Below are positions 1,331 to 44,055 of a stretch of DNA of 64,000 bases, one piece after another. This DNA is from Octopus vulgaris (Eukaryota), in the NCBI GenBank assembly GCA_951406725.2, contig OX597814.1:93806001-93870000 (forward strand), written 5' to 3'. Under the pieces are notes generated by a model. It made no database searches, was not told the origin of the DNA, and was given only the letters and a program-made list of their open reading frames with translations. The position numbers were made by a program, and so were the translations under genes. Positions within the stretch are counted from its first letter, which is position 1; every line of letters starts with the position of its first letter.

Positions 1331-1506
<176 letters not shown>

Positions 1507-3333
1507 CAGTAGTTTTATTTTTATTTTTATAGCGTGCTTTCACTTCACTACCGAGCGCAGCTCTGTGTGCCTTGGGTATGTGCTGTGATTTGTTGTGATG
1601 CTCTGATGGTTATTGTATGGAAAGTGTTCTGCGTAGGATGTGTGCAGTGCCTAGTAGTGCAATTTTCTGTATGTTATATGTGTTTGTAAGTCCTGGTGTT
1701 TTTGTTATGTATTTGTCTGAATATTTTTTATCATGCCTAATGCACCTACTATGATAGGAATTGTTTCTGTTTTTAGATTCCACATTCTGGTTACCTCCAA
1801 TTCCAGGTCTTTGTATTTTGAAAGTTTCTCCATTTCTTTTAGAGACACGTTGTCATCTGCCGGTATTGATACATCAGTTAGAAAGCATTTTTTTTCTTCA
1901 TGATCTCTGACAACTATATCTGGTCTGTTGGCCTTAATTTCTCTATCTGTGTGTATCGGCATATCCCAGAGTATGGTTGCTTTCTCATTTTCTGTGACCT
2001 TTTCTGGTATGTGCCTATACCATCTTTTTTCTGTTGTTATTTCATAATGTTGGCATAGCTTCTAGTGTATGTAGGTTCCAACTCTGTCATGTCTGTGAAT
2101 ATATTCCTTCTTAGCCAGGACTGGGCAGCCAGAGATAATATGATTTATTGTTTCTTGTCCATCTCCACATATTCTGCAGTTACTTGTTATATTTCTTTTC
2201 ATTACATGTTTTTGGTAATTTCTGGTGGGGAGGCTTTGGTCTTGTGCTGCAATTAAATATCCCTCTGTCTCTGCTTTGAGTCCTGAGCTTCTCAACCATT
2301 GCTGGGATTTTTCTTTGTCTATTTCTTTTGCATTTAGTTTAGTCCAGTATTTACCGTGGAGGGGTTTTTCTTGCCATCGTTTTATCATGGTTCTTTGCTG
2401 TTCTAGTTTTAGTTTGGATTTCATTTGTTTTATAGCTTTTGTTGTTTCTTCATCTTCTTCTTCTTTTTCTTTATATTTGTTAGGTGGTATGATTTCTTGT
2501 TTATATTTGTCAGCTTCCTTGAATACTGAGAACAGTTTTTTGTTTTGCTCGTGTTTTGCCGCTATTTGTATCAGTTTTCCTTCCTTCTGAAGTAGATATT
2601 TTTGCAATCCTATGGTGGTTATTTTATAGCAGTTTTCCAGCTGTATAATGCCTCTACCACCTTCTATACGTTGTATATATAGTCTTTCTATGTCAGATTT
2701 TGGGTGATGCATCCTAGACCCTGTCATTATTTTTCTTGTTTTCCTATCTATTTTGGTCAGTTCATTTAGTGTCCAGTTAAGGATATTGTAGCTGTAACTT
2801 ATAACTGGGACAGCTAAAGTGTTAATACCTATTATCTTGTTTTTAGCATTGAGCTCTGTTTTTAGTATTGATCTAACTCGTCTATAATATTCTTTTTTAT
2901 TTTCTCTTTCATTTGTGTGTGTTGTGTCTTATCTAGTTCATGGATTCCTAAGTATTTGTAAGTTTGGCTTTGGTCTAATTCTTTTATTTCATTGGTTTTA
3001 TCTAGTGTGATGTTGCTACTCTTAACTAGTTTTCCTCTTTTCATGGTTACTTTGGCGCATTTTTCTAATCCAAATTTCATATCTATTTCTTTGGTAAATC
3101 CATGAACTGTCTTTAATAGTGTTTCCAGCTGTTTGTCATTTGCAGTGTATAGCTTTAGGTCATCCATATATAAAAGGTGGCTGATCGTTTTGCCGTAACA
3201 TTTATATCCGCATCCAGTTCTATTTAGCATATCAGATAGAGGTGACAGTGCCAAGCAGAAAAGGAGTGGAGAGAGCGTGTCTCCCTGGAATATTCCTCTT
3301 CTAATGGGGATGGCTTTGGTTTTCATGAGTCCC
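1507..3333 (-). mobile_element. 5'-truncated R4/Dong-like LINE (RT C-half, CCHC finger, RLE, 3'UTR) inserted in (TAA)n
   Basis: GIFQGDTLSPLLF and HLLYMDDLKLY (RT, ORF 2862-3326); CRICG..ETINHIISGC (ORF 2062-2727); RPDIVV..CFLTDVSIP (ORF 1705-1962); (TAA)n on both flanks; frames broken by few lesions. Confidence 0.93.
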
Positions 3334-5545: not shown

Positions 5546-5602
5546 AATATATATATACATACATACATAAAATCAAAATAAGCAACAGATTATCAAGTAG
5601 TG

Positions 5603-5690
5603 ATGCAGTACGATCGTTTCAAACGACTTCATTTAATTTAACAATACAATCTTTACATCAATTTAAATTCAGTGCCATCGTCAGCTGCAC
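5603..5690 (-). ncRNA. Type I hammerhead ribozyme-like motif with long helix II (Penelope pLTR type)
   Basis: Minus strand: GTGCAG-CTGACGA-[long AT-rich hairpin]-GAAA-CGATCG-TA-CTGCAT; palindromic stem III, GUA cleavage triplet; base of helix II imperfect. Confidence 0.6.
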
Positions 5691-8982: not shown

Positions 8983-9228
8983 GGAGGCGCGTGGATTAGT
9001 GGTTAGGGTATTGAACTCATGATCGTAAGGTTGTGGTTTCGATTCCTGGACCGGGCGATGCGTTGTGTTCTTGGGCAAAACACTTCATTTCACGTAGCTC
9101 CAATCCACTCAGTTGGCACAAATGAGTAATCCTGCGACGGACCGGTGTCCCGTCCAGGTGGGGAATTTCTACGCCACTGAAACCGGGAAACCGGCCCTTA
9201 TGAACCTGGTATGGCTTGAGAAGGAACA
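8983..9228 (+). mobile_element. tRNA-derived SINE with Nin/Deu-like central domain
   Basis: A-box (gtggattagtgg) and B-box (gtttcgattcc) head; body cctgcgacggac..tcccgtccagg..gaaaccggg resembles Nin/Deu domain (family assignment from memory). Confidence 0.7.
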
Positions 9229-9405
9229 TTCGTCTGCCGTTACGTTCTGAGTTCAAGTTCCGCCGAGGTCGACTTTGCCTTTCATCCTTTCGGGGTCGAT
9301 AAATTAAGTACCAGTTACGCACTGGGGTCGATGTAATCGACTTAATACGTTTGTCTGTCCTTGTTTGTCCTCTGTGTGTTTAGTCCTTTGTGGGTAGTAA
9401 AGAAT
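9228..9405 (+). mobile_element. 5'-truncated Meta-core SINE (octopus OK-like) abutting the previous SINE
   Basis: gtcgactttgcctttcatcctttcggggtcgataaattaagtacc core shared with several other copies in the window. Confidence 0.85.
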
Positions 9406-9487
9406 ATATATATATATATATATTGCTATACTCAGGGATGGTCATATATATATAAATATAGTGGAATTAAACCCTGAACCATGTAAT

Positions 9488-9520
<33 letters not shown>

Positions 9521-10986
9521 CATATATATTCACGAGAGGAAAGCCGGTAAGTCATGATGTACCAATATTATGCCCTTACTCCACAAAATTCAAGGGTTTT
9601 TATACCTGTAAACTGCGTCAAAACTGCTTAACGTTCTCAGAGCTAATCCAATAAGTATTTTTAAAAGACATAAAACTTGCATTATAATACAAAAATCGGG
9701 TCCCCCAAACTAGGTTTAGAACGATTAAACTATTATAATGTGTTGAAGAAAATCTGAATTAAAGTAAAGCAATTTGATACGTATATGTTAAAATCTTGCT
9801 CATTTTCTTTCAGTGTTCTGTATTTGTAGTAAGGTTTTAGCTGTTTGACATTTATTTTTATTTTGTTTGCTTTTACATGTGCTAAAATATAATTATGAAT
9901 AATGCCCTCAATATATATAGTCTTTTCTGTTATATTCACCTGCTATATTCATCAGAAAGACATTCAAATACTGTTTCGGCCACCGAGAACTAATGCCCAA
10001 TGAGTTGTTTACTTAAAATTTGAATTTATAGTAATATGAGAGACGAGTATTTCGAATACAACAAAAGGCCTGCTGTTATATTCTTCCACAAATCTGATTC
10101 ACTCTACCTAATGTCCTCTACCAACTGGGTGTGAACACTTTGACAGCAAAAACGCACTTAAATTCGTCGCATATGCAGCGATCAAACAACACAAAAATAA
10201 TAACAATAATACTAATAACAATACAATTCCGAAACATTTCTACCCAATCACCACGACTCTCACGTAAAAAATAAAGCAAAAAAACTGATAGCCGATTTGA
10301 GCTTGCCGACAGACAAAAAGACTTTCGAGGGGACAATTGACTCAGTCGGCGTAGTCTTCACGCTGTCAACGGCGACCTCCCGTCTCTGATGCATGAAACC
10401 GACAACAGCTTACCCCCGCCACCCACCGTCGGTACGTTACAAACACTCATTTTCTCGTACTCGAATTCTCCGTTGGGTTCTGTTATATTATTACACATAT
10501 CTTCTCCAAGATGAGAAGTTTACTGATTTATTTCATTATTGTATTTTTCAAATAATACATTTATTGTCATCATTTAAAATCTCATTTGTTTCTTCTTGTT
10601 GTCCTTGCAGCCAAACGCTTACCTATTTCTGCCTTTATCATCATCATCATTATCACCCACATTATACAAGTCATTAGCCATCTGGTATTATTGCAATTGT
10701 AATATGAAATACGAGGCTACCGAATACAACAAAAGGTCTGCCATTAAAAACATAGAATTATTCAGATGTAAAATTTTAAATTTTATTCCTAGGAAATCGT
10801 TGGCGTCGACGTGAAGTAACACACTCCATTTTCAGCTATTCATATTTCCCTTTGTCTTTTCTGGAATAAAAGCATTCGTTCGACATGAGCGAGTTTTTGT
10901 TACAAACTTATGCCAGGCAGTTGTCATTTAGTTTGATTTATTTTTATTCAGATGTTTAACCATCAAAAGTGAAAATAGTAGCTTCC

Positions 10987-11390
10987 TCTTACTCTTTACT
11001 TATTTCAGTCATGTGACTGCGGCCATACCGGAGCACCGCCTTTAGTCGAGAAGATCGACCCCCAGGACTTATTCTTTGTAAGCCAAGTACTTATTCTATC
11101 GGTCTCTTTTGCCGAACCGCTAAGTTATGGGGACATAAACACACCAGCATCGGTTGTCAAGCGATGTTTGGGGGATAAACACAGACACAGGCATACACAC
11201 ACACATATATATACATATACATATATACGACGGGCTTCTTTCAGTTTCCGTCTACCAAATCCACTCACAAAACTTTGGTCGGCCCGAGGCTATAGTGGAA
11301 GACACTTGCCCAAAGTGCCACACTGTGGGACTGAACCTGGAACCATGTGGTTGGTAAGCAAGCTACTTACCATACAGAAACTCCTGCGCT
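10987..11390 (-). mobile_element. Full-length tRNA/CORE-like SINE (octopus OR-like) with internal (TA)n(TG)n
   Basis: Homologous to copies at 33178-33573 and 63554-64000. Confidence 0.9.
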
Positions 11391-11790
11391 TACTCATTGT
11401 ATTTTTTTTTAGTCGGTTAAGGAAGCGTTTGAACGTGTATGATGTATTTGTAGCAGATTGACTAGAACAATCATTTTTTGTAAAATAATGGTATTTTCTT
11501 CATTGACACGTTCATACTCTTTTTCTTTTTGTGACGTTTTGGAAGGCGTGTTTTGCTGAGAGGCTTCTGCTGAAAGTCGGCTTAACAAAAGAAACCCTTC
11601 AAAATGTCACTTTTTTTCGCAGAGAAACATTACAAGAAACGTAGCAATCATATTTTGAGTTAATTAAAATAAATTAAGCAGTAAAAGTCATCTAAAGTTT
11701 GAAAAATATGCACAATGCTAATCTATGACGGGAATGTGAAAAAAATGCAATTTTCTAAGGCAATGAACGACAATGACAACAAGAGTTAAA

Positions 11791-12188
11791 GGCGGCGAGC
11801 TCGTAGAAATGTTAGCACGCCGGGAAAAATACTTAGTGGTATTTCGTCTGCCGTTACGTTCTGAGTTCAAATTCCGCCAAGGTCGACTTTGCCTTTCATC
11901 CTTTCGGTCTCGATTAAAGAAGTACCAGTTACGCACTGGAGTCGATATAATCGACTTAATCCGTTTGTCTGTCCTCGTTTGTCCTCTCTATTTTTAGCCC
12001 CTTGTGGGTAGTAAAGAAATAGGTATTTCATCTGTTGTTACGTTCTGAGTTTAAATTCCACCGACGTTGACTTTGCATTTCATCCTTTGAGGGTCGATAA
12101 ATTAAGTACTAGTTGCGCGCTGGGGTTGATCTAAACGACTTGCCCCTCCCCAAAAATGTCCGGCCTTGTACCTAAAGTAGAAAAGAAT
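11791..12188 (+). mobile_element. Dimeric Meta-core SINE (OK-like)
   Basis: ggcggcgagctc.. head, two tandem copies of gtatttcgtctg..gcctttcatcc..aagtac core with different tails. Confidence 0.88.
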
Positions 12189-12789
12189 GGCAACAATAGT
12201 TGTAAAAGCATCAACAACAACAAGATTGATGATGACGACTGTTTATAAAACACAAAAGGCTCGTACGTACATGCAATAAACATTACAAAGGTGGGGATTT
12301 ACAATACAAGTAGTTCGACAGACTTTTGTAAAAAATAGTGAACGGGTGAAGACATTATAGAATGGTTGGGTTAAAAATTTTGTAAACGACATGGAACAAT
12401 CATAAAATTATTTGAAGCTACACTGATATGAAACAATATATAATGATAATCCTAAAATAATGGAAAACATTTTTGATGCCCCTTGCACACATATATCAGG
12501 GAGAACTTACTAGTCTGGCTCACATCATATCTCTATCCCTCTGCTCCCACTACTCGAGCTGAAATTGGTAAAATCAAGGTTCTCATTAAAATATTATCTT
12601 TGTTTTAGTTTTGCTTTTTTAGTCGCGTAGATTATTCCAATTTACTGTATTCGGCTTCTTTGTGTAAATTAACGAGTGCTGTCAAACTCTTTATTAACAT
12701 TCTGTCAACTGACTGCATATAGATGTCGTCTAATTTTCACTCTTCGTTACAACATGTTATTCACTCTTCATCACTTACCTCATCAACTA

Positions 12790-13120
12790 TGGAACAGAGC
12801 ATGGTGCAGAATTTGTGGAAAATACGAAGAAATCGTTATGCGTATTGCCACTGGGCGCATGGAATTGGCGAAAGCCAAGTACATTCACAGACACATCAAA
12901 GTAGTGGCGTTTCTGTACTAGAAATTATGTACTAATTATAAGATGAAAATGACTGCGAAATGGTACTATCATCAGTAAAGCATAGTCACTGAAAATAACT
13001 CTACTATTCTCTGAGATGTAATCATCTTTTTTAACAGAGAGATTTGAAAAATAACGTGTGACACCGTTATCAATGAATAAGAATAAGTAGTGCATACTTC
13101 TCAAGAGCGGTAGAAGTGTC
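12790..13120 (+). mobile_element. Old R4/Dong LINE fragment (zinc finger region)
   Basis: ORF 12676-12921 ends CRICGKYEEIVMRIATGRMELAKAKYIHRH, homologous to CRICG..ETINHIISGCPVLAKKEYIHRH of the 1507-3333 element. Confidence 0.75.
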
Positions 13121-13164
13121 TTCAAAATGAATCATCCAGGATGTGAGGCATCAGAGTAAATATA

Positions 13165-14033
13165 TTGTGTTGAGAAATAATTCATGAGCGTTTTTCAAAC
13201 GTTGTCGTCTTGCAGAAGAACGCCATTTCACCTATTCGGTCTTTTTTGCTGAATTACTTTGTTGAGCCGGTGTAGTTGTTGAATGTAGAGCTCTGCATTG
13301 AGTGTTTGGTTGCGCTCAAGCAGTTCGTAATTTATTATACCTCCTTCCCAGACCCACCATACACACAACATACTCTTTAGTGGGTGAAGGTCTTGTTTTG
13401 CTCTTGGAGTTGTTTGTGACTATGTGTTGAGCGATATCGGGCGAGCAAACTGTTGGTGATTGTGGAGCGTTGATTTTAGTTATTTTCGCTCAAAGTGTGT
13501 GGTATCCAAGCGCCAAGTTTCTGAACCTTACCGACTGAGTGAAGATGGTTCATCACAGTCTTTTTATCTCAATCCATCTACACTTCTAATTCTCCGATCG
13601 TTTTACGCGCATTTTCGTGAAGTTGATTCAATCGCACTTCATCGAACTCAGTTGGTTAACTGGTGTATGATAATTCTTTGAGGTGAAAACTCCTATTTTT
13701 GAAGTGCGAAAAACAAAGGCAGGCGGCATATTGAAGCACAGCTCCTTCTCCATAGACAGCTCAAATCACACGAGCAGCTTCTGTGGCCTTAACACCTCGA
13801 TTAAATGCAAAAAGCAAATGGTATCGAAAATACTCGGTTTTGTTCACTTGACATTCCAATTTAATGATCTGAAAATAGACAAAAATCAACGAAATTAAAA
13901 AATCAAAACACACTATTTTGTAGAGCAATAAATTCTCTTTTTAAAAAACTATAGAACATTTTGCAACGTGCTTTATTTCTGCGTGCATTTTGGAATTTGA
14001 AAGAAAACACCCATGAATTATTCCTCAACCCAA
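13165..14033 (-). mobile_element. Internally deleted mariner DNA transposon with both TIRs and TA TSD
   Basis: TIRs ttgtgttgagaaataattcatgagcg / cacccatgaattattcctcaacccaa flanked by TA; minus-strand remnants KLGAWIPH (WVPHEL motif) and LHPLKSMLCVWW. Confidence 0.88.
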
Positions 14034-14864
14034 TAGTACTAACCAGAATTGGAATATAAGTTATGATTAAATGCATATGAACAAAATATTAAAACCCATA
14101 ACAAACAATGTTACACACAGTCTAAATGACAGTGACGTATGAGAGTTTAGATTTAGAGGCCCAGAGGTCGGTGGGGTTTGATTAAACTCAGGGGCTGACC
14201 CTAATGCCAAACACTCTAGCTAAATCACTACTAAATGATAGCACTGTTCAACATCGCCCACGTTCCCCAAAATATATTATCGATTAACTTCAACAACCGA
14301 AAGTGCACCTTATTTACACACTACACTCCACAGCACACTTACACCAGATATATTCTTACACACTCACTGCTAGACACTACAACACCAACAAATCATACGA
14401 CTCGCCTACAACAAAATAAACAACTAAAAGCATAAGACAGCCATCATAGCACGTAATTTATGCAAACTGCACCTGCCGCTAAATCACGTAACATCAATCA
14501 CGCAACACATACGAAACTGAAATACAACACAACAAATTAGCAGTAAGATACAATAGAAACCCGAATTAAATTCCTCAAGACACGGTAACTAATAATATTA
14601 ATCAATTGTTACATTTGCATAATATTTTTTATCGCACACTATTTAGGTTTCTTCACCATCTGCGTTTTCATGTCTATGGCACAGATTATTAAAAATTTTA
14701 TCATTATTTATCATTCTTCTTTTTAACTACTCCTACATATATAATCAATATATACGTTTCATTCGAAACTAATTTGATCTTAGTTTAGCTCTTTGATATA
14801 TATTTACATAGGTTTTATATAACATGGTATATGTTCTATGAATTTTATGGTATTTTGCCTTCTG

Positions 14865-15248
14865 TACTCTTTTACTCTTTTTTTTAACTCTTTTACTTGT
14901 TTCAGTCATTTAACTGCGGCCATGCTGGGGCACCGCCTTTAGTCGAGCAAATCGACCCCGGGACTTATTCTTTGTAAGCCCAGTACTTATTCTATCGGTC
15001 TCTTTTGCCGGACCGCTAAGTGACGGGGACATAAACACACCAGCATCGGTTGTCAAGCAATGCTAGGGGGACAAACACACACACACATATATATATATAC
15101 ATATATACGACGGGCTTCTTTCAGTTTCCGTCTACCAGATCCACTCACAAGGCATTGGTCGGCCCGGGGCTATAGTAGAAGACACTTGCCCAAGATGCCA
15201 CGCAGTGGGACCGAACCCGGAAACATGTGGTTGGTTAGCAAGCTACTT
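14865..15248 (-). mobile_element. OR-like SINE, body and 3' part (split by insertion 15249-17563)
   Basis: Homology to other copies; head resumes at 17564-17600. Confidence 0.92.
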
Positions 15249-17563
15249 TATTTCATAACATTTGCCATAAAGGCAGTACATAGAGTAAGTTAGCTTCGCG
15301 GGCTGGACGAGGACATTAATGAAATGAATGATAATGAAAGAAAGATGATGGGGATGGGAGAAGGCAAAAAGCGCCCGCCGACTTCTGCCTCTCTAAAACA
15401 TTGTTCTTTTAAAAACAAACACAAAACGAGGTATTAACCTCTTACAATTTTACAACTTTTCAATTTTTGGACTTAACAGTCCATTACTAACAACAACATA
15501 GTTCAATAGTTACATATGATATAAATACAATACACAAAGCCCCTCCTCCCAGACTTGGCTTACACTTCCCTTAGGAATGCGCCAGCTCTAGGTCGGGGCC
15601 CCTCAAGTCGTATCACAATTTATGACTCGTCCTCAAAATAACTTGTACCTGCACCCTCCGCCATCCACCACGCCTCCCTCAAAATGTAATCGAGTTCCGT
15701 GTTAGCGTCGCCCGGGACCAAGCTATAATCCTCATTGAGCTCCTTCAGCCCAAGCGTCACGTCGAACGCCACGACCTCCATAGCTACCTGCGGAGGCCAT
15801 TCGGGGTCCTGTGTGAAGGCTAAAGGTGCTCCCTTGTGGTGCTTTTCCATCACCTTTTCAATCTCTCCGCCTCTGTGGAAGAGGATCAATACATCGTTTT
15901 TGCTCGGGTGCGGGATATTCAATTCTTTCGTTGGCGGCACAGTTCCCGCCAACGGTGTTTCTTTTTCTGTCGGTGGCACAACCCCAACCGACGTAGTTCC
16001 GGGACATTCCGGTACTATGTCACCGACTGCCGGTAATGTCCCGTTTCTCTTCCTCTTTTTCTTTTTTTTCAACTGAGGGAGGGTGCGTCTCCTCCGTGGC
16101 CGGAAGATTCGCCTTTCCCTCCTCATCCCTAGTATCCTTTGGTGAGCACCCATTGTTGCTCACCTTCCTCTTTCGGCCTCTGTTTGAGGAGTCCTCCACT
16201 TCCTCGGCCGTTTTCATTCCCTCTTCTACAGGGGTTTCACTTAACTGTTCCGGGATCCTATTTTGTTCCCGGGGACAGTTCTTCTTTATATGGCCGGACT
16301 CCAAGCACCGATGACACTTGTGGGGCGACCCTCAAGCATCACCGGGTACCTGCACCCGGCCATTTTCAAAAAATCTGGAAGAACCAGATTGGCTGATTGG
16401 GTCCAAAGGGTCAAAATTGCTTTTGACCCAACCCAAGCAGCCGCAGGAAGAACTTTCACATTAAGGAGCTTAGTTTCGCTGCTACCCAGATCCCAGCGGA
16501 TAGTCTCCTCTATCCACTAGGGTTTTATCCCGGGTGGCAGCCCGTAGATCCACGCTTTCGTCAGTCTCTTTTTTTGGTACGTGGGCAGGAATAAAATTTC
16601 CTTACCCTCCAGGGATTTACTAGCAAATTTGCAAGCCTCTTCAGGGGTGTCAAATAGCAACCACACCGTTGCATATTTGACACCCCTGGAAATGAATTTA
16701 ATTGTTGGCAAATACTCTGCCAACTCCTTTTCAATTGCCGTCTTTTCGAATAGGGCGATGGTGTCGAGGGCCTTGGAGTAGGTTCTCAACACCACCGTCC
16801 TATCTTCACGGTCTTTTAACCACTTTTTAGGCGGTATAATCTCCCATTCCAAAATTTTGTCATTTTTCATTGCCATGTTTTTTTGGGTTTTTTAAAAATA
16901 TATTCAAAATAAACTTAAAAAGCGAGAAGAAAAAGTTCAAAGGTCCAAATAAAATTCGATAGATTTTTTGAAAAAACAAAAAGGAGGAAGCACAACAGAA
17001 GGGAAGAAATCAACGGAAAGTCGCAATAAACAAAAAAACAAAAAGGGGAGTTTAATGAAGTTCAAAAGAAAGTCAGTAAACAGCAAAACACAGCAAATCT
17101 TCTGGCCTTACGGTACTCCCGGCCTGAGTTGAACCTAGAACGCCGCAACTGGAACACAAAATTTGGTCCAAAAGGTACTCCAAAAGTGGCTCATTCTTAT
17201 AATTTTCTTGCGAGATACTCCGACAAAGGAATAAATTCAACAAACCCAACCACAGCACTGGCCACCGCCAACGGTAATTTTAACAGTAACTTTATTGTGT
17301 TCTGAGGATACGCCTCTCCACTGTTTTTTTTTCAATAAACACAAAAACAGCAGCCGCCGAGAGCAGGCGAAATTGTCTCAGAGTTGGACACAACTTACTG
17401 AAAAAATAATTAGCACGCAATAAATTATGCCCAACTCACAATAAACAAAATCACTCACCTCGACAACTTTCTGTTTTTGGTCTTTTTTCTGTAATTGGAC
17501 GGAGCTAGCTAACTCACGTCCACTCTGGCTCAACAGGAAGCAACTGACTAACAGCGCATGTGC
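15249..17563 (-). mobile_element. Complete 2.3 kb ORF1-only (half-LINE/HAL1-like) non-autonomous retroposon
   Basis: 15-bp TSD gttagcaagctactt at 15234-15248 and 17564-17578; one disrupted ORF 16876->15620 with CHRCLESGHIKKNC knuckle; ends in AATAAA; no RT/EN motifs seen. Confidence 0.85.
15620..16876 (-). pseudogene. gag/ORF1-like protein (~420 aa) with CCHC zinc knuckle; one stop and two frameshifts
   Basis: ORF pieces 16517-16876, read-through to ...MLEGRP, shift to KCHRCLESGHIKKNCP (16020-16304), shift to 15620-16153 tail. Confidence 0.8.
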
Positions 17564-17600
17564 GTTAGCAAGCTACTTACCACACAGCCACTCCTGCGCC
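17564..17600 (-). mobile_element. Displaced 5' head of the OR-like SINE at 14865-15248
   Basis: Reverse complement ggcgcaggagtggctgtgtggtaagtagcttgctaac equals the SINE start at 33178. Confidence 0.92.
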
Positions 17601-19532: not shown

Positions 19533-19639
19533 GAATAAATATACATACAAAACCTTGTACATTTTTATGAATTTTATGGTAATTTACCATTTGTATATGC
19601 ATATATAATTTAATTAAAGGACACAATACATGTCTTTAA

Positions 19640-20860
19640 TAATCCCGTTTTATGATTAGATAGGGAAGATACGAACGCTAGAAAGGGCAGTACTGGAAAA
19701 GTAAATAATAAAAATGGAGCTAATAACTAAATGTATAGTTACAAGAGAATGGATAGAAGGGAAATAACAAGTACTAGCACAAACAATATAACCGAAGGCG
19801 GTATCCAGAATGTAAGAAATCAGAATAGTGTAAATATCTTTTGATATAGAAAAACTAAGACAAGGGACATAAATATTCAAGTAAAAATAGGAGATAATAA
19901 AGAACTAGGTAGGGTTAATCACTGCGATTGAACAAAACGAAAATTATGCCCATTAAAATTAAATTGCATAACTAAAGATTTGGTTTACATGGGCAAAGTA
20001 CTTTCAGAAGAAGAGATATATTCCTACATAGGGTATAGTTCTAGTTTCATAAAATGTAGAAGAGCTAGTCACGAACTATCTTTTAGAGATAAAAATAAGA
20101 AAAATACGCGCTTAAGTAAATTAATTTGGTCGTTAAAAGATATTAATAGAGCATACTGAATTACTTGGGATATAATTAGTAGGGCTAAACCCTATTGTAG
20201 AGGAAGCAAAAGGTGTGAATTAGTGTGTAGAGGAAATATAACAAATCTTTACCAGAAAATTTAATCTGATAAATCATAGGCAAGAACGTGCGCAAGATGT
20301 GCAAATACGTTTAAATATACTTTTAAGAAGTTTAAGTAAATGCATTACAATTACTACTAGAATTAGAATTAGAATTCAGCAAATAATGAACTTGAATTAA
20401 GCGAACACGTCTACAAATACAATTATATTAATTTTCTTTGAAAAGAGTTGAAGAATGAAATTACATTTAATAAAATTAATGCTAAGAAGGATATTTAATT
20501 AAATATAACAAGAAAGTGATAAACCTATAATTATAAAAATAAAAAATAAACCAAAAGTGTAATTCAATAACCCACACAGTATAAAAATACTCTTCTAAAT
20601 TGGTAGAATGATGAGCTAGAATATAATACTTAGGAACCTACGAGAACCTTGACCTGCTTTGAAGACCACATCCAGCAATAAATAAACTGGTGGAGGTAAA
20701 CTTCAGGTCACGAGGAAATACGACTATTTAGAGTAAAGTCAACACCTCTTAAAGGATCTACGCAGCTGAAACGTGCGTAGATCCAGGAGAAGAACGATGT
20801 AAATAATTGTATAATGAAATATGGATGCGCAAATTTCCGTTCTCATGATTTTCATTAATT
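19640..20860 (+). mobile_element. Decayed Penelope-like element 3' part (GIY-YIG endonuclease and terminal repeat)
   Basis: ~19920-20230 translates CPLKLNCITKDLVYMGKV..YSYIG..SHELSFR..LSKLIWSLKD..W.IISRAKPY..GSKRCEL. Confidence 0.78.
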
Positions 20861-21164
20861 TCATTATATATATATATATATATATATACATGTGTGTGTG
20901 TGTGTGTAAATACACATATATACGTTTATATATATATATATATACGTATATATATATATATATATATACCTGTGTGTGTGTGTTTGTGTGTGAGTATGTA
21001 TAAATGTTCGCTTTTATGGGAGATTACAGATGAAACAATTTAGCATTAAACTGAAAGGTCACACGGTACATCTTAGTATAGTACATATTTCTAAATTTTA
21101 CAACTTAAAGTTCGATAGTATCGTCTAAGTTTGGGCTTTGTAGCTGTCAATCGAATGTGTTTTT

Positions 21165-21715
21165 CAAGCTAGATGCGAATACGCCAGACATCATATTGAA
21201 AGACTTCAGACAAAAATCATGCCCCCTCATTGATATGACTATCCTAATCGATATAAACGTATCTGTCAAGACCTACCTAAAACTGAGCAAGTATAGAGAT
21301 CTTGAAACAGAAATTAGAAAAATGTGGAACCTGAAGATTAAAACAATACCTGTTGTCATAGGTGCCCTAGAAATGATAGCAAAAGCGGCTGATTGTTTTC
21401 TAGCTCAGATATCAGGAAACCCCAAAATGGCAGAAATTCAAAAGATAGTGCTCATGGGAACTGCCCATGTCCTACGTAACATACTGTCTAGGTACTCTCA
21501 AATTTTAAAACAAACACATAATTTTCTTATGGTTTCTTAAACATCCCTAGAACAACGGTATGTACAAAACCAAATATATAGCACTCTAGGCATAACACCA
21601 GTATGAACTTCTAACTTGTTGTCTCTTGAGGTCTCTGGATGAGACTTGGAACCAACTTGTACAAATGCAAAACAAAAGTCAAACATAAAATAATAATAAT
21701 AATGATAATAATAAT
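21165..21715 (+). mobile_element. R4/Dong-like LINE 3' end (second subfamily) with (TAA)n tail
   Basis: ORF 21157-21540: PDIIL..IDM..KLSKYRDLETEI.KMW..IPVVIGAL..QKIVLMGTAHVLR. Confidence 0.88.
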
Positions 21716-22093
21716 CCTTTCAACTTGAAGCAGAAGGCCTCAAATTTGAAGGAAGAGATTAAGTCGATTACATTGACCCCAGTGCGTAACTGGTACTAAT
21801 TTTATCGTCCCTGAAAGGATGAAAGCAAAGTCGACCTCAGCGGAATTTGAAGTCAGAACGTAACTGCAGACGAAATACCTATTTCTTTACTACCCACAAG
21901 GAGCTAAACACAGAGAGGACATAAGAAAGGAGAGACAAACGGATTAAGTCGATTATATCGACCCCAGTGCGTCACTGGTACTTATTTAATCAACCCCGAA
22001 AGGATGAAAGGCAAAGTTGACCTCGGCGGAATTTGAACTCAGAACGTAGCGGCAGACGAAATACCGCTAAGCATTTCATCCAGCATGCTAACG
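21716..22093 (-). mobile_element. Dimeric Meta-core SINE (OK-like)
   Basis: Reverse complement of the 11791-12188 layout. Confidence 0.85.
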
Positions 22094-22129
22094 ATATCAA
22101 TAATAACAATACTAAATGAAAAAGAACTG

Positions 22130-22455
22130 AAAATTATTTGAGAATGATCACTGGTTAACCATCCGTGCAGGAAGTGCAAAAGATTGTCTTAACTCGTACG
22201 TCATACGTTTTGAGAAGAGCATTGTCACTGTGAATTTTCTTCCCTTTTCCACCTTCATTTTCTTTATTTAATTAGTTTTTATTTTTTTCATTTTTTCTCT
22301 ATCACATAACTTTGTAAATGAACAATTTGTTGTGTTTAATTTAATGGCCTAACAATATATATATAGTACGTTTCCCTGTCCTAGGTGTCAGGAAGGCACC
22401 CGGCAAAAAATAGAAATAGAATTGAAAGATGATAATGAAAATAACAATAATAATA
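22130..22455 (+). mobile_element. R4/Dong-like LINE extreme 3' end (third variant)
   Basis: EVQKIVLTRTSYVLRRALSL* then UTR and taa/tga-rich tail. Confidence 0.6.
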
Positions 22456-22599
22456 CTGATGATGATGATGATGATTTCTCTTACTGGACACAAGGGCCAA
22501 ATCATTCAATAAAAGGAACTACTTGATATGAAGGTGGAGGGGAAAATTCAATTAAAATAGTAAAAGGAAAGGAGATTAATAAAGTGTAGTCAGACTTAC

Positions 22600-23249
22600 A
22601 GCAAATAATTGTCCAAGTGTAACAGATAATCCGGAAAGAAGATTAATAATGTATAGGCAGACTTACGGCAAATAATTGTCCAAGAGTAGATAGAAAGTGA
22701 TCGTGAGCCCATATCTGAACGTTTGGGGTCAAGGTTAGCAAAAAAAACGTAAATACCATAATAAACGTTATCATAAATTCTATACCAAAAGCTTGACCTT
22801 TGTGTTTCGGCATGAACCGTTGTAACCCCTAGTTGGCCGTGCGCCTCATGTGGGGTTAATCCGTATAAAATACCAGCGCCTGTAATGGCACCGGCGTATT
22901 GTGCTGTGATATAAAAAATTGCCCTTAGCACATTGACGTTTCGCGTGACTAGCATTGCTATAGTAACGGCCGGATTCAGGTGAGCACCGCTGATATGTCC
23001 CACACACTGGACCAACGTGGCGGTGGCCAGTCCGAAAGTGAGTGCTATTTTCAATTCGTATTCGATGAGCCGTCTCTCATCCATGATCTGTCGTTTCTCT
23101 TCTTGTCTCCATAACGTCCAAGAACCACATCCGATGAAAGTATAAAGCAAAGTAGTAAGGAATTCACAGCGGACAGCCTTCCAAAAACTGTGACTCATTA
23201 AGTCCTCCTTAAGAGACATCAGCTTGCTTCGGAACGGAGTTTCGGTCAT
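22600..23249 (-). pseudogene. Aquaporin (MIP family, AQP4/big brain-like) exon covering TM1-TM5, disrupted by indels
   Basis: FWKAVRCEFL, GHISGAHLNPAVT (first NPA), AQYAGAITGAGILY; GQAFGIEFMITF in a shifted frame; ends GLSVTLGQLFA|GTAAGT donor; second NPA exon not found in window. Confidence 0.85.
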
Positions 23250-23379
23250 AGCTGAAGCTGTACTGAAATCAACAATTGATGCTGATGATGCGGTTAACGT
23301 TGCCTCTGCCGTTATTGTAGCTGTTTTCTATTTCTTTTCTGTTTTTCCTTTTTTTCGTTTCTGATTATTATACTTCTAG

Positions 23380-24126
23380 CGGTGTTATTGTTGTTGTCAC
23401 TGTTGTTGTTGTTGTTGTTGTGTTGGTGTTTTATTTTTTCTTGTTGGCGTTGCTGCTGCCGCTGCTACTGCTGCTACCTCTGCTGTTGTTTATGTTGTTC
23501 TGGTTGCGTATTCCTCGTTGCTGCTACGGATGATCGTTTGGCAGCTGCGGGTGAGAGTGATGCATGATGATGACAATGATGAATGTGATGGTGATGATGA
23601 TGATGATGATGATGATGATGGCGACGACGGCGACGATGATCGTGATGATGATGACGACGACGAGGACGATTACGATAATGATGAATATATATCGATGGTG
23701 GGGGCGCTGGTGTTGGCGGTTATGGTTGTGTTGATGTTTTTGATTGGGATTTTATCGATGCTGTTACAACTGACGCTGATGTTACTGCTTTTAATGCCTC
23801 TCTTATTGCTGCTGCTGTACTGTTGCTGCTGCCGATGATGATGGTGTTACTACTGTTGTTGATGGTATTGCTGTTGTTGTCGTCGTTCTTGTTGTTGACG
23901 ACGATGATGATGATGGTGATGACGCTGTTGTATTTGACCCTTCTCTCTATTGTCTTCTTCTTCTTCTTCTTCTTCTTCTTCTTCTTCTTCTTCTTCTTCT
24001 TCTTCTCCTTCTCCTCCTCCTTCTCCTCCTCCTCCTTCTTCTTCTTCTTCTTCTTCTTCTTCTATTACTGCTGCTGGTGCAGTTGCTTCTGTTCTGAAGT
24101 TACTAGTGATGACGATGATAACGGTA

Positions 24127-24165
<39 letters not shown>

Positions 24166-24190
24166 CGGCTTCTGTCGATGCTGCTGTAGC
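23380..24190. repeat. Compound trinucleotide low-complexity region upstream of the aquaporin ATG
   Basis: (TTG),(CTG),(GAT),(GAC),(CTT) runs; stops seen in the frames I checked. Confidence 0.85.
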
Positions 24191-24530
24191 TGATATTACA
24201 AACATTAGCGCGCTATGTTCTGGTAGAACGGGATATATAGTGGAGGCAGTTATATCTCCTACTCCTACTCCTACTCCTGCTTCCACCTCTCTCACGGTTG
24301 GCTGCTGGAGATGCTGGATGTGAAGATGATATCCACACAATATCAATAGGTCGATGACGACTTTAGTGTTGAGTGTATAATGGAGGAGGGTGGCGGTGAC
24401 GGCGGTAGAAGGGGTTCAAATGCATACAGGTGTCTCTCGTTGCTGTAGCCTTGGCGGTAGTGGGGCCGATGTTTGTTGGTTTCTTATATATATATATATA
24501 TATATATGTTATATATTATATATATATATG

Positions 24531-24581
<51 letters not shown>

Positions 24582-24684
24582 GTATATATATATGTATATA
24601 TATATAAATAAATAAATAAAACATATGCATATATACATACATATATGTACGTACCTACCTCTACGTATATATATACATGCATAC

Positions 24685-25050
24685 ATGGGTACAGGACACC
24701 AAAAAAAAAACGTCGAACACAATGAGAAACGAAAACATAAACACAAAACCGTGGAAATGGACATTTTTTTAAACAACGAAAAAATAGAGTACAGGACATA
24801 CAAACAAGGAAAATTCCCCTTCTTCAGTCGCCTTAATTTCATCTACTCCACGTTTCGAAGGTCAGGCGATACATGACTTCAATGAAATTTTCCTTCCCGC
24901 GGAAATCAAATTGAATAAAATTTGAGATTTTTTTGCGGAGGGGTAAAAATGGTAACAAAAACAGGACAGTAGCGACAGTACAAAATATAAACAGGACAAC
25001 GGAGAATAACACTAACACAAACAAGGAGGGCTGTTAAGCCAAACGAGATA
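24685..25050 (-). mobile_element. Penelope-type terminal repeat remnant
   Basis: Related to 50634-50790 (gggtaca..ccttcNtcag..tctactcc); carries CTGAAGA and GAAAC half-motifs on minus strand. Confidence 0.5.
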
Positions 25051-25062
25051 TATATATATATG

Positions 25063-25095
<33 letters not shown>

Positions 25096-25156
25096 GTAGA
25101 AAATAAGCAAGAGGATATCAAGAAGTGATGCAGTACGACCGTTTTAAGTGGCTCCA

Positions 25157-27238
25157 TTTAATTGAACGGGAGTGGGGTGAGAGGACTTGCTTAAAACGCC
25201 ATTTCAGATCAGGAAGACGAAGCAAGCTCCGAGTTGGGGGATTTTTCCCATATTTTTAACCACACCTTTCGAAATGATATGGGCAGGGAACATCTTTTTA
25301 TGAAAATAAAATAAAATATATTATCTCGTACAACCCTCCCCCTCATCATCCCACTCCTGACCGATTTTGGCCAATTTATTTTGCACTTGGAAACCATCGG
25401 TGGAGCCTTTTCCATAAGAATAATATTAAAAAGAATTTGGGAAGCGTGTGTGTTTGTGTGTTGTTGTTGTTTTCGGGGGATTTTGAAAGCTTTTTGGTGG
25501 GTACAGCTTGTTTATTTGTTGGTGTACTGTTGTGCCTACTTCTTAGTATTTTATGTGTGACTTCTGTCCACTCAATTCTGTTGGCCTCTCCGCACGACAT
25601 GACTAAGTGGTCAGAGTCGGGAAGGGGTAGTTCTAGCAGATCGAAATTTGCTGATGTTTTTGTTCCTCTGGCAAGAGCTGCGTTGATGGTGTTTTTGTGG
25701 GCGCTGCGCTGTGGTGGTGGTTGTGGTCAGCGCCTCTGTTGCTGTTGGCGTTGTTGTCTCTCTTGTAGTTGTGGTTGGTGGTGATTTGTTTGCTGTAGCC
25801 CTCTCTGCTTTCTATTCGTGGAGTTTCTTCTCTTGTTGGGGTTGCTTTTGTTGTTGGGGCTGCTTCAGTAGATGGGGTTGCTTCAGTTGCTGTGGTGTGG
25901 GTGGTGCTTGTATCAAGGGGATATTTCTCTCCTTGTGTTTTAGTTGTGGGCAGAAGGCTTTCAGGTGCTTAGTCTGCCCGAAATGTCAACATCTTTGCCT
26001 TCTGCCCCCAACTGTGACGTTCATTATAGTACCATCTGGAAGGCTGAGTTGGTCAGGAATTTGTTCCAAACGTCTTGGTTTATTTGGATCATTATTTACA
26101 ATCCTGTCCCAGCATGGCCGCGGCCTTCGGGATAAAACATTTTTAAGGCTTTTAAGGATTTAAGTCCAGTTGGTTTTTCTTTGTTTCTCGACTTGGGTGA
26201 TTCTGATTTTATCTAGCAAGTCGAGGGGGATGGCTGCGGCAATCCACAAACAGTCATTTCTGGTAGTATCTCCAGTATTTTTATCTTGGTGACGCGCCCT
26301 CCCAAGTTTGTTGAAACTAGGACAAATTCACTGTTTCTCATCCGAGCTGAGTGCTGCTTTGCTACGTATTCTATAGCAAATCTGACTTGAATTGTGCTTT
26401 ATTTCTTACACATCGACAGATATGTTACGTCTTTCCAAATGGGTTGCAAGCATTTTCAACTGCTTGCTTTGTGACAGTTTCTAAGCGTCTATTTTTTACA
26501 GGTATAGTTTTATACATTATAGTACGTTTGTTTGCATTGTCTATAATATCTGGAGGCGTGTTCATCAAAACACATCTTTCGCATTTTCTTTTTAACATGT
26601 TTCTGTAGACTTTGAGAGAATCTACAGAAACACTAATGAATTCATTACTAGGCTTTGCCATTGACGCAAATACTCGGCTGTTTAATGTATTGGGTTGTTA
26701 TTGTTGTTGTTGAGTGTTCAATGTGTTAGTGTCAGTGGTGATAGTGGGAGGGCTTGGATTCACAGGAGTAGCAACACTGGCAGCATTCATTAGCTGAATT
26801 TCCTTGCTCTTTTCCTCTTCTTTCTCGCGTTTCTTTTCTTTTTTATCCTTCTGTTGCTCAGCGTTGCACGTGCTAGCAAGACTTTGGTCGTCCCTCCCTC
26901 TGCCTTTTAAGGCGCGGAGAGGGGACGGAAGCAATTAATTTAAAAACTTTTTTGGCTGTTTTCGGAAAGCAGAGGAGGGAATTCAAAAAGAAAAGAACAG
27001 CTAACACTCTTCAAGGATATTTTGCAAATTTTGAAAAATGAAAACATGAAGAATTTAAATTGAAAATTCGTCCCAAAAGGGGTAAAGTCCCGCCTAACCC
27101 TTCGGCTAAATAATAGCCCAATCGGCCTGGCTACAAAAATGTAAAAAAGTTCAGAAACAACAATGTTATCTGTACAAATTGAACAAAAATTTACAGCTCA
27201 CGAACACATGTCCTTCTTCTTTTCCCTACGAAAATGAC
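25157..27238 (-). mobile_element. Second, older ORF1-only retroposon homologous to 15249-17563
   Basis: Broken frames NKRTIMYKT..QAVENA, RVTKIKI..LPE..WIAAAI, IPDQLSLPDGTIMNVTVGGRRQRC*HFGQTKHLKAFCP align in order with the first element; ends ATTAAA; no RT/EN; no TSD found. Confidence 0.72.
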
Positions 27239-27269
27239 GATCATCAAAATAAATGGCTGGACGTTATTC

Positions 27270-29663
27270 CTCATGTCATGCAATTAAAATCAAAAACGCA
27301 AAAATGGACACGTGAAGAATATATTTCAAAAAAGGTACATCAGAAATAGACATAGAACGCTTAAAAGGAAAAATACATCAGGAAAGAACACAGCAATGTC
27401 AAATAATATCATAAGCAGTGGGACTGTAAAATACGAAGACAGAAGAAACATGTCCAGAAACGAAGTAAACAACGAAAGACAAGAAACCCAGACCGTAGGA
27501 ATGTATAATAATGACCAACAAGCACCAAACCAGAACGCCACAGACAAAACATATGAACGGGAGGGAATACGAAGCAAATCTAAAACCTGGAGACAGTGAA
27601 GGTGAAACTAATGATTATGTACACTAAAAATTAGCTTTATCAAAGAATTGAAAGCTACAGATCTCAGTATGGACCACCGAGTGTACCTCCCAAAAATTAA
27701 AATTGATAATAAAACAACGTCAGTAATAAATAGCATGAACCTAACCGTCACAGAACTATTCGCCATAGAAACAAATGTCAATATGGCCAGGCTAAATGAT
27801 ATAATATATGCAGCAGCCCCGCTGGCCACAATCCCTAATACCCATCCAAACACGAGCATCCCCATCCCCCAAAAAACTGTGGATAAATAATATCCAGAAC
27901 ATAGTAGCATATATGAGAAAGGTTCTGTCAATTCTTAATGAAACTACTAGACAATCAACACTACTAAGCAACAAGAAGAGAAGAAAAATACTACATAAAT
28001 ACAAAATTACAGAACAAGGTATACTGAGGTAAGAGAACAGCTAAAGCAAGATATCCTCACCAAAGCATAAAGAATCCGCCGGTATGAGAAACGCTAACGT
28101 TTCTTTGAACAAAATAAACAGTTCAACTCCAACCTGAAAAGATTCTACCAAGCATTTGGCAAAAATATAATAGACATCAATGCAGCAAGAGTGGAAGAAT
28201 TTTGAGAATGAATATGGTTGGCGAAGAAACAACCTGTGCAAAGATCTATAAAAACAACGAACATAACACCTGGACAACTCTGGAGTCCTGTAACAACTGA
28301 AGAGGTTATTCAAGTACTGCAAAAACTAAGCAACTGGAAGGCAGCAGGGCACATCAATTTTCCCAACGTCTGCTTAAAATATCAAACAGGAACACATAAA
28401 AAGCTGGTTGAGAAATTTAATGAAATACTAGTAGAGCCAGAGACAATCACTGAAGGGAAAACTATCCTAATTCCCAAATCTACTGAAACGGCAAACCTAC
28501 AAAATTGCCTCTGCATTTTACAAAGCCTTTACTGCAAGAATAACACAGATAATGAGCAAACATCTGGAAGGAAACAACCTGTTTCCAGAAGAGCAAAAGG
28601 GAATCTGCAAGGGCTCATACGACTGTAAATATCAGCTACTGATCAATTAAGCCATAACTGAAGACAGCCGCAGAAGAAAGAAAGGATTAAGTATGGCCTG
28701 GATCGATTACAGAAAGGCTTTTGATAGTATTCCCCACGTATGGATCCTAGAAACACCAGCCATGAATAATAGCACCAATAATCAAAATATAGATGGATGA
28801 TCTAAAAGAGTACGGTACTAATAGTAAACAGTACATGGATTTACCAAATAAATAAACATGAAATTTGGCTTAGAAACATGTGCCAAAGCGACCTTGAAAG
28901 GGGAAAAAGGAATTGAGAGTGTCAACATCCCACTAAATAAAGCAAATGAAACAAGAGAATTAGACCAAATCCAGACGCAAATACTTAGGAATCAATGAAC
29001 TAGATACGATACAACACACACACAAATGAAAGAAGATTAGAAAAGATACTATAGAAGAGTAAGATTAATACTGAAAACAGAGAGCTGAATGCGACTAACA
29101 AGATAATAGGTAACAACACTTTAGCCGCCCCAATTATGAGTTACAGCTACAATATTCTTAACTGGACTCTAAATGAGCTAATCAAAATTGACAGGAAAAG
29201 AAGAAAAATAATGACAGGATTTAGGATGTACCACCCAAAATCTGACATTGAAAGGTAAGTACACAACGTATCCAAGGTGGTTGGAGCCTTATACAGCTAG
29301 AAAACTATTACAAAATAACCACTATAGGACTACAGAAATACATACTTTAGAAGCAAGGAAAACTAAATAGCCACAAACCACCAGCAAAATGGAAACCTCT
29401 TTTCAGCCTTTAAGGAAGCTGACAAATACAAAAAAGAAGTCATAGTACCTAACAACTATGAAGAAAAAGAAGAAACAACGAAATCCAAACTAAAATAAAA
29501 CTGGAACAGCAACAGATCATGATAAAACGATGGCAAGTAAAGCCCCTTCATGGCAAACTTTCGGTTAAAATAAAAAGAAATAGACAAAGCAAAATCGCAA
29601 CAATGTTTGAGAGGCTCAGGACTCAAAGCATAGACTGAAGGGCTTTTAATTGCAGCACAAGAT
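27270..29663 (+). mobile_element. Decayed, internally deleted R4/Dong-like LINE
   Basis: NWKAAG, EGKTILIPK, EEQKG, LSMAWIDYRKAFDSIPH, MKFGLE.CAK, TEGLLIAAQD; nucleotide similarity to 2230-3090. Confidence 0.88.
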
Positions 29664-33092: not shown

Positions 33093-33179
<87 letters not shown>

Positions 33180-41739: not shown

Positions 41740-44055
41740 AATAAACAAGTGGATAGAAATCAACACATAACCTTCAACAAACATCGAAAAAATCCAATCC
41801 ATACAAGCACCAACCCCATGCGACTCCACAAATTTACGAGATGGATAAAAAACAACCCCCACTATCAATACAATACAAACACAAAACATGAACCATCCAC
41901 CTACCCACAAAGAAACCTGAAGCCCAGTAATAGAAATTGGCTCAACACACACGGAAGGTGGGAAGAAAACAACTACCAAAGACAAAACAACATATACAGA
42001 CCATATAGACCACCCCTACTACTACAAGAAAACCTAAGATATGAAAATGGAATTGGGAGACGCAACAGCACAACCCCTTTTTTAGGGAAAGGATACTTCA
42101 ACCATATTCCAGACCCAATACACCAAAAATTCCAAATGAACACACAAAACACATAGACCCCAAACTAATAAACCTATCTAAAAGAGAACGTAACGAAAAT
42201 GAAATGAATCTACTACTAAAAGGCCCCAATTTTACACCCACACCCAGTCCAAATCTTTATAGAACTAAAAACTGATATAGACAACTTCAGCCGCCACCTC
42301 CACCTTATGGAATTCTTTGAAAATAAAGAAACAGAAGATAACTCAATCATAAGGAAAAAATCCCATTTCACCCCTTACAAGGGGAGTGACAAACACCTAG
42401 ACGCATACATCGAGACAATATCCAAATTCCCTCTCAACACGCACAAATGCAAACAGAACCTCCGCAGAAGAGAAAAACAAGCCTTACAAAAACTAAAAAA
42501 TGACAAGTCGATCATTATAAAAGAAGCTGACAAAGGTGGAGCAATAGTAATTATGGATACATATTACTACAAAGAAAAGATACTGGAGTTACTTAACAAC
42601 CAGACATACTATAAAGAGGAACCAACACCACGGGAGAAAGCAACAATAAAAAAAATTAGAACATTAGTCAATGAATACCAGACCTCCTTTACAGACAAAG
42701 GGAAAGACTATCTATGCAACACAAGAACCAAAGATAGCAACTTTTATGGATTACCTAAAATTCATAAAAGCTCTAAAATACAGAGAGCCATAAAGGAACA
42801 GAGGAACCACTATATAAAAATACAAAGGCCCGCAGACCTCACAATGAGACCAATAGTGGCAGGACCCCAGGCACCGACACAACAACTAAGCCACTTCATA
42901 GATGTACTCCTCAAACCTTTATGCCCACAAATACCAAGCTACATAAAGGATGACATAGACTTCCTCACATCAAGACATCAAGAAAAAATGGAAACGTTAC
43001 CTCGATGACTGCTTCATCTTTTGGAACAGATCAGAAGAAGACCTACGACCATTCCACAACATCCTCAATACACTGCACCCATCTATCAACTTTACAATAA
43101 ATACCAGCCACAACGAACGTCCCTTTATAGACATCAACATCAAGATACACAACTCCATCATCACAACAGATATCCACTACAAAAAAACCGACACACCAAT
43201 ATTTAAATTTCTACTCCTGCCACCCATCCCACATAAAAAGAAACATCCTATATATTAAGGCAAGACGCATATGCAGCATAGTAACTGACTCACAAACACA
43301 CCTAATAAGACTAGATGAACTTAAAAACTTCCCACTAGAACAAAAATACCCCCTTAAACTAACAAAAAATGGAATCTCAAGAGCAATGAAACTGGACATC
43401 ACACAACTCAGGACCCCCAAAACAAAAAAAACAAAACAAAGAAAACATTATCCCTTTCATAAACACACAAGCCTGGAGTTACCAACATGTTTCAAATCAT
43501 ACATTCAAATCTACCAATAGTCCTATAAAGCCCCAAAATGGAAAACATACTAAACAAATATTGCATAAAAAACAGTAGACGACAAGACAAAACCTGAAGA
43601 AACAACTAACAAGAGCGAAATTCTCATCAGAAACTCAAACTGAATTCTTTGTAAAAGAATGCAGGGATGGTAGATGTGGGATCTGCAGTAACGCCACCTA
43701 CAAATACATAGAGGGAGACAAAGAAATGAAATTCAAAAGTGGTCACATATTCAAAGTAAATGCGGATATGAACTGCAAGACGCAGAACGTAATATACTGC
43801 ATAACCTGTCCCACATGCAAGGAGGATTATATAGGTGAAACTGGAAATTCTTTATGCCAATGAGCCAGAATTCACCGACAGCATGTCCGACAGGAGGAAC
43901 TGCGCAAGATACCACTGAATAAACACCTAGATACATGTGGAGAAGGAAAATTTAAGATCTTTCCCTTCAACAAATGTCCAAAGAACGACACCTCCTTCAG
44001 GAAGAATATGGAAAAATACTTCATAACTAAGTTCTCCCCCAAATTGAATAGGTGA
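41740..44055 (+). mobile_element. Penelope-like retroelement (RT with internal deletion + GIY-YIG), decayed
   Basis: ORF 42307-43008 IIKEADKGGAIVIMD, FYGLPKIHK, RPIVAG; then KWKRYLDDCFIFW; NVIYCITCPTC..YIGETG; ends SPKLNR*. Confidence 0.92.

Follow-up and report, generated by a model that had tools for sequence, protein, structure and literature searches.

A decayed, multicopy relative of an ORF1-only insertion in Octopus vulgaris, with a predicted type I LINE ORF1

Type I ORF1 proteins (ORF1p) of LINEs are defined, in the available part of the source, by an RRM plus a CCHC knuckle (PMC4120745), and the accessible text of PMC5203782 describes them as consistent with Tx1 in non-mammalian animals. 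For O. vulgaris, the accessible sections of PMC13282606 report 80 L1-Tx1 families covering 56 Mb, next to 11 unclassified LINE and 1,102 unknown families. Thirteen L1-Tx1 families have been active recently, with 421 near-full-length insertions (2,288,644 bp, about 5.4 kb each), a length sufficient for an ORF2. HAL1, an ORF1-only derivative of L1, arose several times independently in mammals, according to the portion of PMC5753468 at hand. No description of a cephalopod ORF1-only element was found in the literature searched, and the available portions of PMC11203168, PMC10294476 and PMC9115989 describe no such element; Repbase, Dfam and the Zenodo library of PMC13282606 may hold these families.

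The window analysed here, a stretch of 64,000 nucleotides from O. vulgaris contig OX597814.1, is animal DNA rich in microsatellites and repeats. Element 2, the subject of this study (25157-27238, minus strand), lies 8 kb from its neighbour, element 1 (15249-17563). Element 2 resembles type I ORF1p and L1-Tx1 in having two predicted RRMs directly before a CCHC knuckle and in being multicopy, and the related element 1 has a 15-bp target-site duplication (TSD) and an AATAAA end. It differs in its long low-complexity tail, in an RRM part that matches no Pfam ORF1 model, in the absence of an ORF2 at the locus, and in carrying one knuckle where the Jockey, CR1 and L2 examples in the available part of PMC4120745 have three. 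The parallel with HAL1 lies in the layout of element 1 (leader, ORF1, 3' region, AATAAA, TSD, no ORF2), which element 2 may share; unlike HAL1, the cephalopod ORF1p is of type I and not of the type II of mammalian L1, and the ORF1-only structure is seen in a single insertion. HeT-A of Drosophila, a Gag-only telomeric retrotransposon of the Jockey clade, encodes an ORF1-type protein with knuckles, borrows its reverse transcriptase (RT) and is telomere-specific, with copies arranged head to tail. Elements 1 and 2, in contrast, are interspersed, and element 1 has a TSD.

Layout of the two elements and contig depth of element 2

The features of element 1 are as follows.

15249-17563, minus strand: element 1, a complete insertion of 2,315 bp; its leader measures 687 bp and its 3' region, which ends in AATAAA, 371 bp
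16876-15620, minus strand: ORF1 of element 1, broken
15234-15248 (3' copy) and 17564-17578, no strand: TSD of element 1, 15 of 15 bases identical

Element 1 was inserted inside the head of a SINE, further copies of which, at 33170 and 38480, carry the TSD word once. It is 72% identical to O. sinensis XP_029652367, and contains neither an endonuclease (EN) nor an RT domain. Element 1 is a real ORF1-only insertion, represented by a single copy, with which a non-autonomous family, premature polyadenylation or a later internal deletion would all be compatible, and it is the only one of this locus pair whose ORF1-only state is demonstrated. The site itself is the tRNA-like head of a common SINE, between two promoter-box-like words. 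Target preference is a property of some Tx1 families and, judging from this one site, is possible for the family of element 1. At its end, the ORF1 of element 1 (15623-15900, minus strand) holds about 90 non-repetitive residues with no Pfam match.

Element 2 and its immediate surroundings are composed as follows.

27224-29662, plus strand: separate LINE relic that encodes an RT (RVT_1, E 3e-4), arranged head to head with element 2
27012-27223, minus strand: probable 5' leader of element 2, with lower-level multicopy depth, cut off by the neighbouring LINE
25448-27011, minus strand: decayed ORF1 of element 2, with N-terminal low-complexity part, RRMs, knuckle and T/P/Q-rich tail
about 26530-26010, minus strand: two predicted RRMs of element 2, placed from the P0010 model
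26096-26162 (core 26108-26152), plus strand: short, very high-copy repeat inserted in the ORF1, depth about 242,000-251,000
about 25991-25950, minus strand: degenerate CCHC knuckle of element 2
25340-25447, minus strand: ambiguous multicopy segment, either the true 3' end of the family or a separate repeat, depth 2,400-3,000
25168-25339, no strand: low-copy stretch (bin 25185-25271 with depth 181/114/5 in X1/X4/X6, ~1-3x a single contig)
25048-25167, plus strand: very high-copy repeat unrelated to element 2, containing a (TA)n run and an ATTAAA, depth 74,000-110,000

Depth was obtained by mapping the contigs of four runs on 25098-27700 at 80% likeness and is a summed depth, which gives no copy number. 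The body of element 2 reaches about 700-3,300 in X1, against 56-79 for single contigs, with typically 5-30 contigs per site, and belongs to a moderately repeated, multicopy family. A joint of the 5' leader (26836-27143) is present in two runs, with 80 letters on its shorter side. The ORF1 is damaged by about seven frameshifts and several stops as well as by the insert at 26096-26162, which other contigs of the family skip (joints 26095-26163 and 26095-26175) and which has a 17-bp match to a SINE end at 14916-14932 (E 0.039).

The LINE relic at 27224-29662, presumably Dong/R4-like, is related to a second relic at 1540-3320 (minus strand); the two are 79% identical over 875 bp (2240-3110), where RVT_1 matches at E 1e-14. 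We rejected the relic at 27224-29662 as the ORF2 of element 2, because it lies upstream of the element and on the opposite strand. Between the two elements and in the same orientation lies an aquaporin coding stretch (MIP, PF00230, E 3e-38; 22596-23327, minus strand). The window also holds the remnant of a mariner-type transposase at about 13200-13850 (minus strand; Transposase_1 E 1e-13, HTH_48 E 3e-9), and frames at 19900-20300 and 42220-43900 (both plus strand) that by eye resemble remnants of Penelope-type RT or GIY-YIG; neither has a Pfam match at E 0.01.

Homology of the two genes and the predicted protein

The first-pass annotation had proposed, from the order of short motifs, that the two elements belong to one family, within which element 2 has diverged deeply. 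Seven of the eight motifs searched were found on the minus strand in the order claimed, at 26529 (KRTIMYKT), 26296 (RVTKIKI), 26060 (IPDQL) and 26018 (VTVGGRRQRC) in element 2, where they are spread over three frames, and at 16804 (DRTVVLRT), 16567 (RLTKAWI) and 16381 (LPDFL) in element 1; the eighth, VMLEGRPTKC of element 1, is split between frames by a frameshift. As had also been claimed, the two elements show no DNA similarity (best blastn E 0.30). No core match was obtained by tblastx or tblastn of element 1 against element 2, and a word-matching search of proteins, queried with part of element 2, returned nothing at E up to 10 among 198 candidates. A frameshift-aware alignment of P0009, a relative of element 1, with 25157-27238 scored 77, a marginal value reached by 5 of 300 shuffles. 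With the insert 26096-26162 removed, the core of element 1 scored 101 (shuffle mean 54, maximum 86) and P0009 scored 88, neither being equalled in 300 shuffles. Repairing the frames and aligning the proteins, as had been suggested, yields a significant and collinear match with 21% core identity over 186 columns.

Outside sequences point to the same relationship. A search of P0009 against 1.84 billion proteins gave 47 hits; after P0009 and P0008 had been left out, 19 of the remaining 45 relatives match element 2 at E <1e-4 (tblastn, best 2.5e-28), and their best match elsewhere in the window has only E 0.059. A profile built from the 45 relatives, neither element included, finds element 1 at E 2e-38 and element 2 in three collinear pieces (E 9e-10, 7e-14 and 1e-11), compared with E 6 for the reversed window as a control. 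The relatives are themselves diverse, with a median identity of 25% over 741 pairs. On this sequence evidence we regard the protein homology of elements 1 and 2 as real, but in the direct comparison it rises clearly above chance only with frameshifts allowed and the insert removed, and the placement of element 2 as a deeply diverged family member holds. The by-eye resemblance of the C-terminal parts does not stand up (152 of 300 shuffles score as high). Nor do the sequences behind the two stops show any special likeness: 940 of 2,196 and 383 of 1,146 window tiles score as high.

The closest relative of element 2 is O. sinensis XP_036364761 (P0010, 623 aa), with 38% identity in the core. Residues 5-487 of P0010 align to 27011-25448 with a score of 635, 169 identities in 545 columns and seven frameshifts, and its two core segments reach z values of 24 and 23 against element 2. 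In the predicted model of P0010, which has two alpha/beta domains, most of residues 120-350 have a pLDDT higher than 90; the best solved structures that Foldseek matches to it are the tandem-RRM proteins IMP3, Sxl, HuR and UP1 (best E 4e-5). The knuckle, PF00098, was detected in 13 of 47 relatives (E up to 0.05), whereas no Pfam ORF1 model matches the RRM part of the family. Element 2 aligns across the P0010 core, in which the RRMs immediately precede the CCHC knuckle as in type I LINE ORF1p. We therefore predict that the gene of element 2 encoded a LINE ORF1p of type I, in which two RRMs precede a CCHC knuckle and which by analogy may have bound and chaperoned RNA. Of 22 relatives looked up, 13 carry a species name, and every one of these comes from an octopod (Octopus sinensis, O. 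bimaculoides, O. vulgaris or Argonauta hians).

It appears very unlikely that the protein is a Gag-like one from a different class of retroelement, or that it belongs to a host gene derived from such an element. The host gene ZCCHC3, which combines two RNA-binding domains with a CCHC knuckle, is close in language-model features: in the ESM Atlas, P0009 has zf-CCHC and ZCCHC3-type RBD clusters as neighbours, the latter with matches at 0.89-0.90, and the absence of a linked ORF2 would suit such an origin. However, ZCCHC3 is a gene of chordates, whereas element 2 is a decayed member of a multicopy family, broken by stops and frameshifts. Element 1, for its part, ends in AATAAA and is flanked by a 15-bp TSD. 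Unlike an LTR retrotransposon with its Gag, neither element is flanked by terminal repeats in a self-comparison of the window, a result that is decisive only for element 1, whose ends are intact.

Several relatives have features beyond the core. P0010, P0027, P0049, P0024, P0038 and P0043 have in common a small C-terminal domain (~100 aa) with an F/Y-P/G-x-D-V-G-like word at its end; among P0010, P0049 and P0027 it matches pairwise at E 5e-8 to 5e-4, with neither a Pfam match nor a usable Atlas match. In P0008 (XP_029639579), a gene model of O. sinensis, 45 residues resembling the ORF1 of element 1 are fused to an integrase domain (PF00665), probably a prediction artefact across two repeats. 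P0043, P0058 and P0059 are relatives of ~800 aa on ENA and JGI contigs, one of 5,720 bp, a length at which a following ORF2 would be visible; two metagenome scans for the surroundings of an 802-aa relative returned no member of the family.

The ends of element 2 and its origin

Two earlier claims about element 2, an ATTAAA end and a size similar to that of element 1, are not confirmed. The ATTAAA (25157-25162) lies inside a different, very high-copy repeat (25100-25167), which matches 5575-5642 at 84% and whose other copies go on as at 5643 and not into element 2; its depth of 74,000-110,000 contrasts with about 1,000-2,000 for the body of element 2. The similarity in size depends on ends that are unconfirmed, since 27224-27238 already belongs to the plus-strand RT LINE and the flanking duplications are only 8 bp long. 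Foreign repeats replace both ends of this copy, which has no A-tail, and no TSD was found, the best flanking repeats being 8 bp. The 8-bp words AATTGAAC (25160/27177) and ATCAGGAA (25208/27377) were rejected as TSDs on account of their shortness and because the host repeat is not picked up again on the other side. Hairpins at the 3' side were no better than those of shuffles (z -1.3, -0.4 and -1.1).

Other parts of the first-pass annotation agree with our results. A low-complexity tail follows the knuckle of element 2, and no endonuclease or RT family is found in the three sense frames of 19560-25450 or 9000-15622. The lack of EN and RT in the 5.9 kb downstream of element 2 (sense) is nevertheless uninformative on an ORF2, because the 3' end is damaged and no end can be demonstrated. 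Nor does the absence of EN or RT domains in the 47 relatives scanned (0 of 47) say much, as ORF1 and ORF2 are separate frames in LINEs.

We give about an even chance to the reading that element 2 is the 3'-damaged ORF1 region of an L1-Tx1-type LINE, an ordinary LINE relic in a genome rich in such relics. Element 2 would then be a decayed copy of a multicopy repeat, with a broken gene homologous to that of element 1 and predicted to be a LINE ORF1; the 3' part of the L1-Tx1-type element would have been lost at this locus, while the 5' part survives as element 2. Established for element 2 are its homology with element 1 and its presence in many copies, together with an insertion within the gene, foreign repeats on either side and the absence of a TSD. 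A cut inside the ORF1 is suggested by the C-terminal domain that the relatives P0010, P0049 and P0027, with which element 2 groups weakly, share and that is undetectable here: for the last ~115-119 residues of P0010, 95 of 100 shuffles score as high over the whole element and 167 of 300 in the 3' part. A profile of six such domains matches neither element (best E 2.3), and the domain of P0049 has a marginal match at 25190-25246 (2 of 300 shuffles, one of five tests there). The assignment to L1-Tx1, which is the most likely one, rests on the domain type, the TSD of element 1 and the published abundance. The reading is also favoured by the published length of the recently active insertions, by the described link of type I ORF1p with Tx1 and by the zf-CCHC and ZCCHC3-type Atlas neighbours of P0009.

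Against a truncation stands the fact that element 1, the sole TSD-bounded family member at hand, is ORF1-only. Moreover, the C-terminal parts vary within the family, and that of element 1 also fails to match the C-terminal domain of the relatives (11 to 19 of 30 shuffles as high). The last open frame of element 2 runs from 25726 to a stop at 25376-25378 that lies inside an AATAAA (25375-25380) and is followed by a G-rich tract; multicopy depth continues to ~25340 at a comparable count of contigs, and there contigs depart into a G-run and an A-run, as a poly(A) end would give.

These observations bear on a second reading, possible but on the whole rather unlikely, in which element 2 comes from a HAL1-like non-autonomous family of ~1.9 kb or more that arose from a parent LINE of its own, independently of element 1. 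Its layout would comprise the ORF1, a short 3' UTR and an A-tail near 25,330, and it would be moved in trans by an L1-Tx1 ORF2. Besides the stop inside the AATAAA, this reading accommodates the depth at 25359-25445, about twice that of the body of element 2, and the 26 (X1) and 21 (X6) contigs that depart at 25340 into a G-run then an A-run (sense) with an agreement of 0.57; the agreement at the repeat tail at 26152 is comparable (0.48-0.55). Element 1 is an example of an ORF1-only insertion in the same DNA, HAL1 originated more than once in mammals (available portion of PMC5753468), and several relatives lie on contigs of 1.7-2.4 kb, a weak point because such contigs are short anyway. However, a run of 23 open codons occurs in 25% of shuffles, and AATAAA and ATTAAA together occur at 2.1 per kb per strand. 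This copy has neither an A-tail nor a TSD, and the C-terminal domain of its closest relatives is missing. The segment 25340-25447 may be a separate repeat, since none of the contigs listed bridges the microsatellite at 25444-25475.

Lineage and meaning of the ORF1 family

In a tree of 27 rows, from which relatives with short cores were left out, element 1 pairs with P0009 (100/100), while element 2 falls in an open, weakly supported group with P0010, P0049, P0027 and P0047 (86/83). The two elements are not sisters in this tree, most inner branches of which are weak and 14 of 24 open; holding four rows together (elements 1 and 2, P0009 and P0010) gave a borderline p-AU of 0.052. The proposal that the ORF1-only layout represents an old, diversified lineage is borne out in one part, the common protein family (21% identity and profile), and not in the other, as the elements are not sisters and element 2 has no demonstrable 3' end.

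It seems improbable to us that both elements go back to a single ancient ORF1-only ancestor whose descendants diversified in octopods and lived on L1-Tx1 as parasites over a long time. Octopods would in that case hold a large, old, HAL1-like ORF1-only radiation that borrows the L1-Tx1 ORF2 and has kept its own RNA-packaging protein, which we consider doubtful; equally doubtful is the corollary that ORF1 proteins only 20-35% identical belong to this radiation, with elements 1 and 2 as two of its branches. Such a descent is consistent with the real homology, with element 1 as an ORF1-only insertion with a TSD, with the 47 relatives free of EN and RT domains, and with the octopod origin of the 13 named relatives (22 looked up). 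On the other hand, unfused proteins are expected either way, ORF1 and ORF2 being separate frames, the elements are not sisters, and the likeness of their 3' regions does not exceed that of window tiles. The 80 L1-Tx1 families that the accessible text of PMC13282606 reports for O. vulgaris need ORF1s of some kind, so diverged ORF1s are to be expected without any special ORF1-only lineage, and ordinary LINE ORF1 lineages would also give the family median of ~25% identity.

In summary, our analysis connects a group of Octopus and Argonauta proteins annotated as 'uncharacterized' with the ORF1 of retrotransposons. Should the ORF1-only reading be right, the HAL1 strategy would also exist in cephalopods, with another type of ORF1, and would provide a natural test of why a non-autonomous retrotransposon keeps an ORF1. 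The question would then be whether an RNA can capture a borrowed ORF2p only with an ORF1p of its own, acting in cis.
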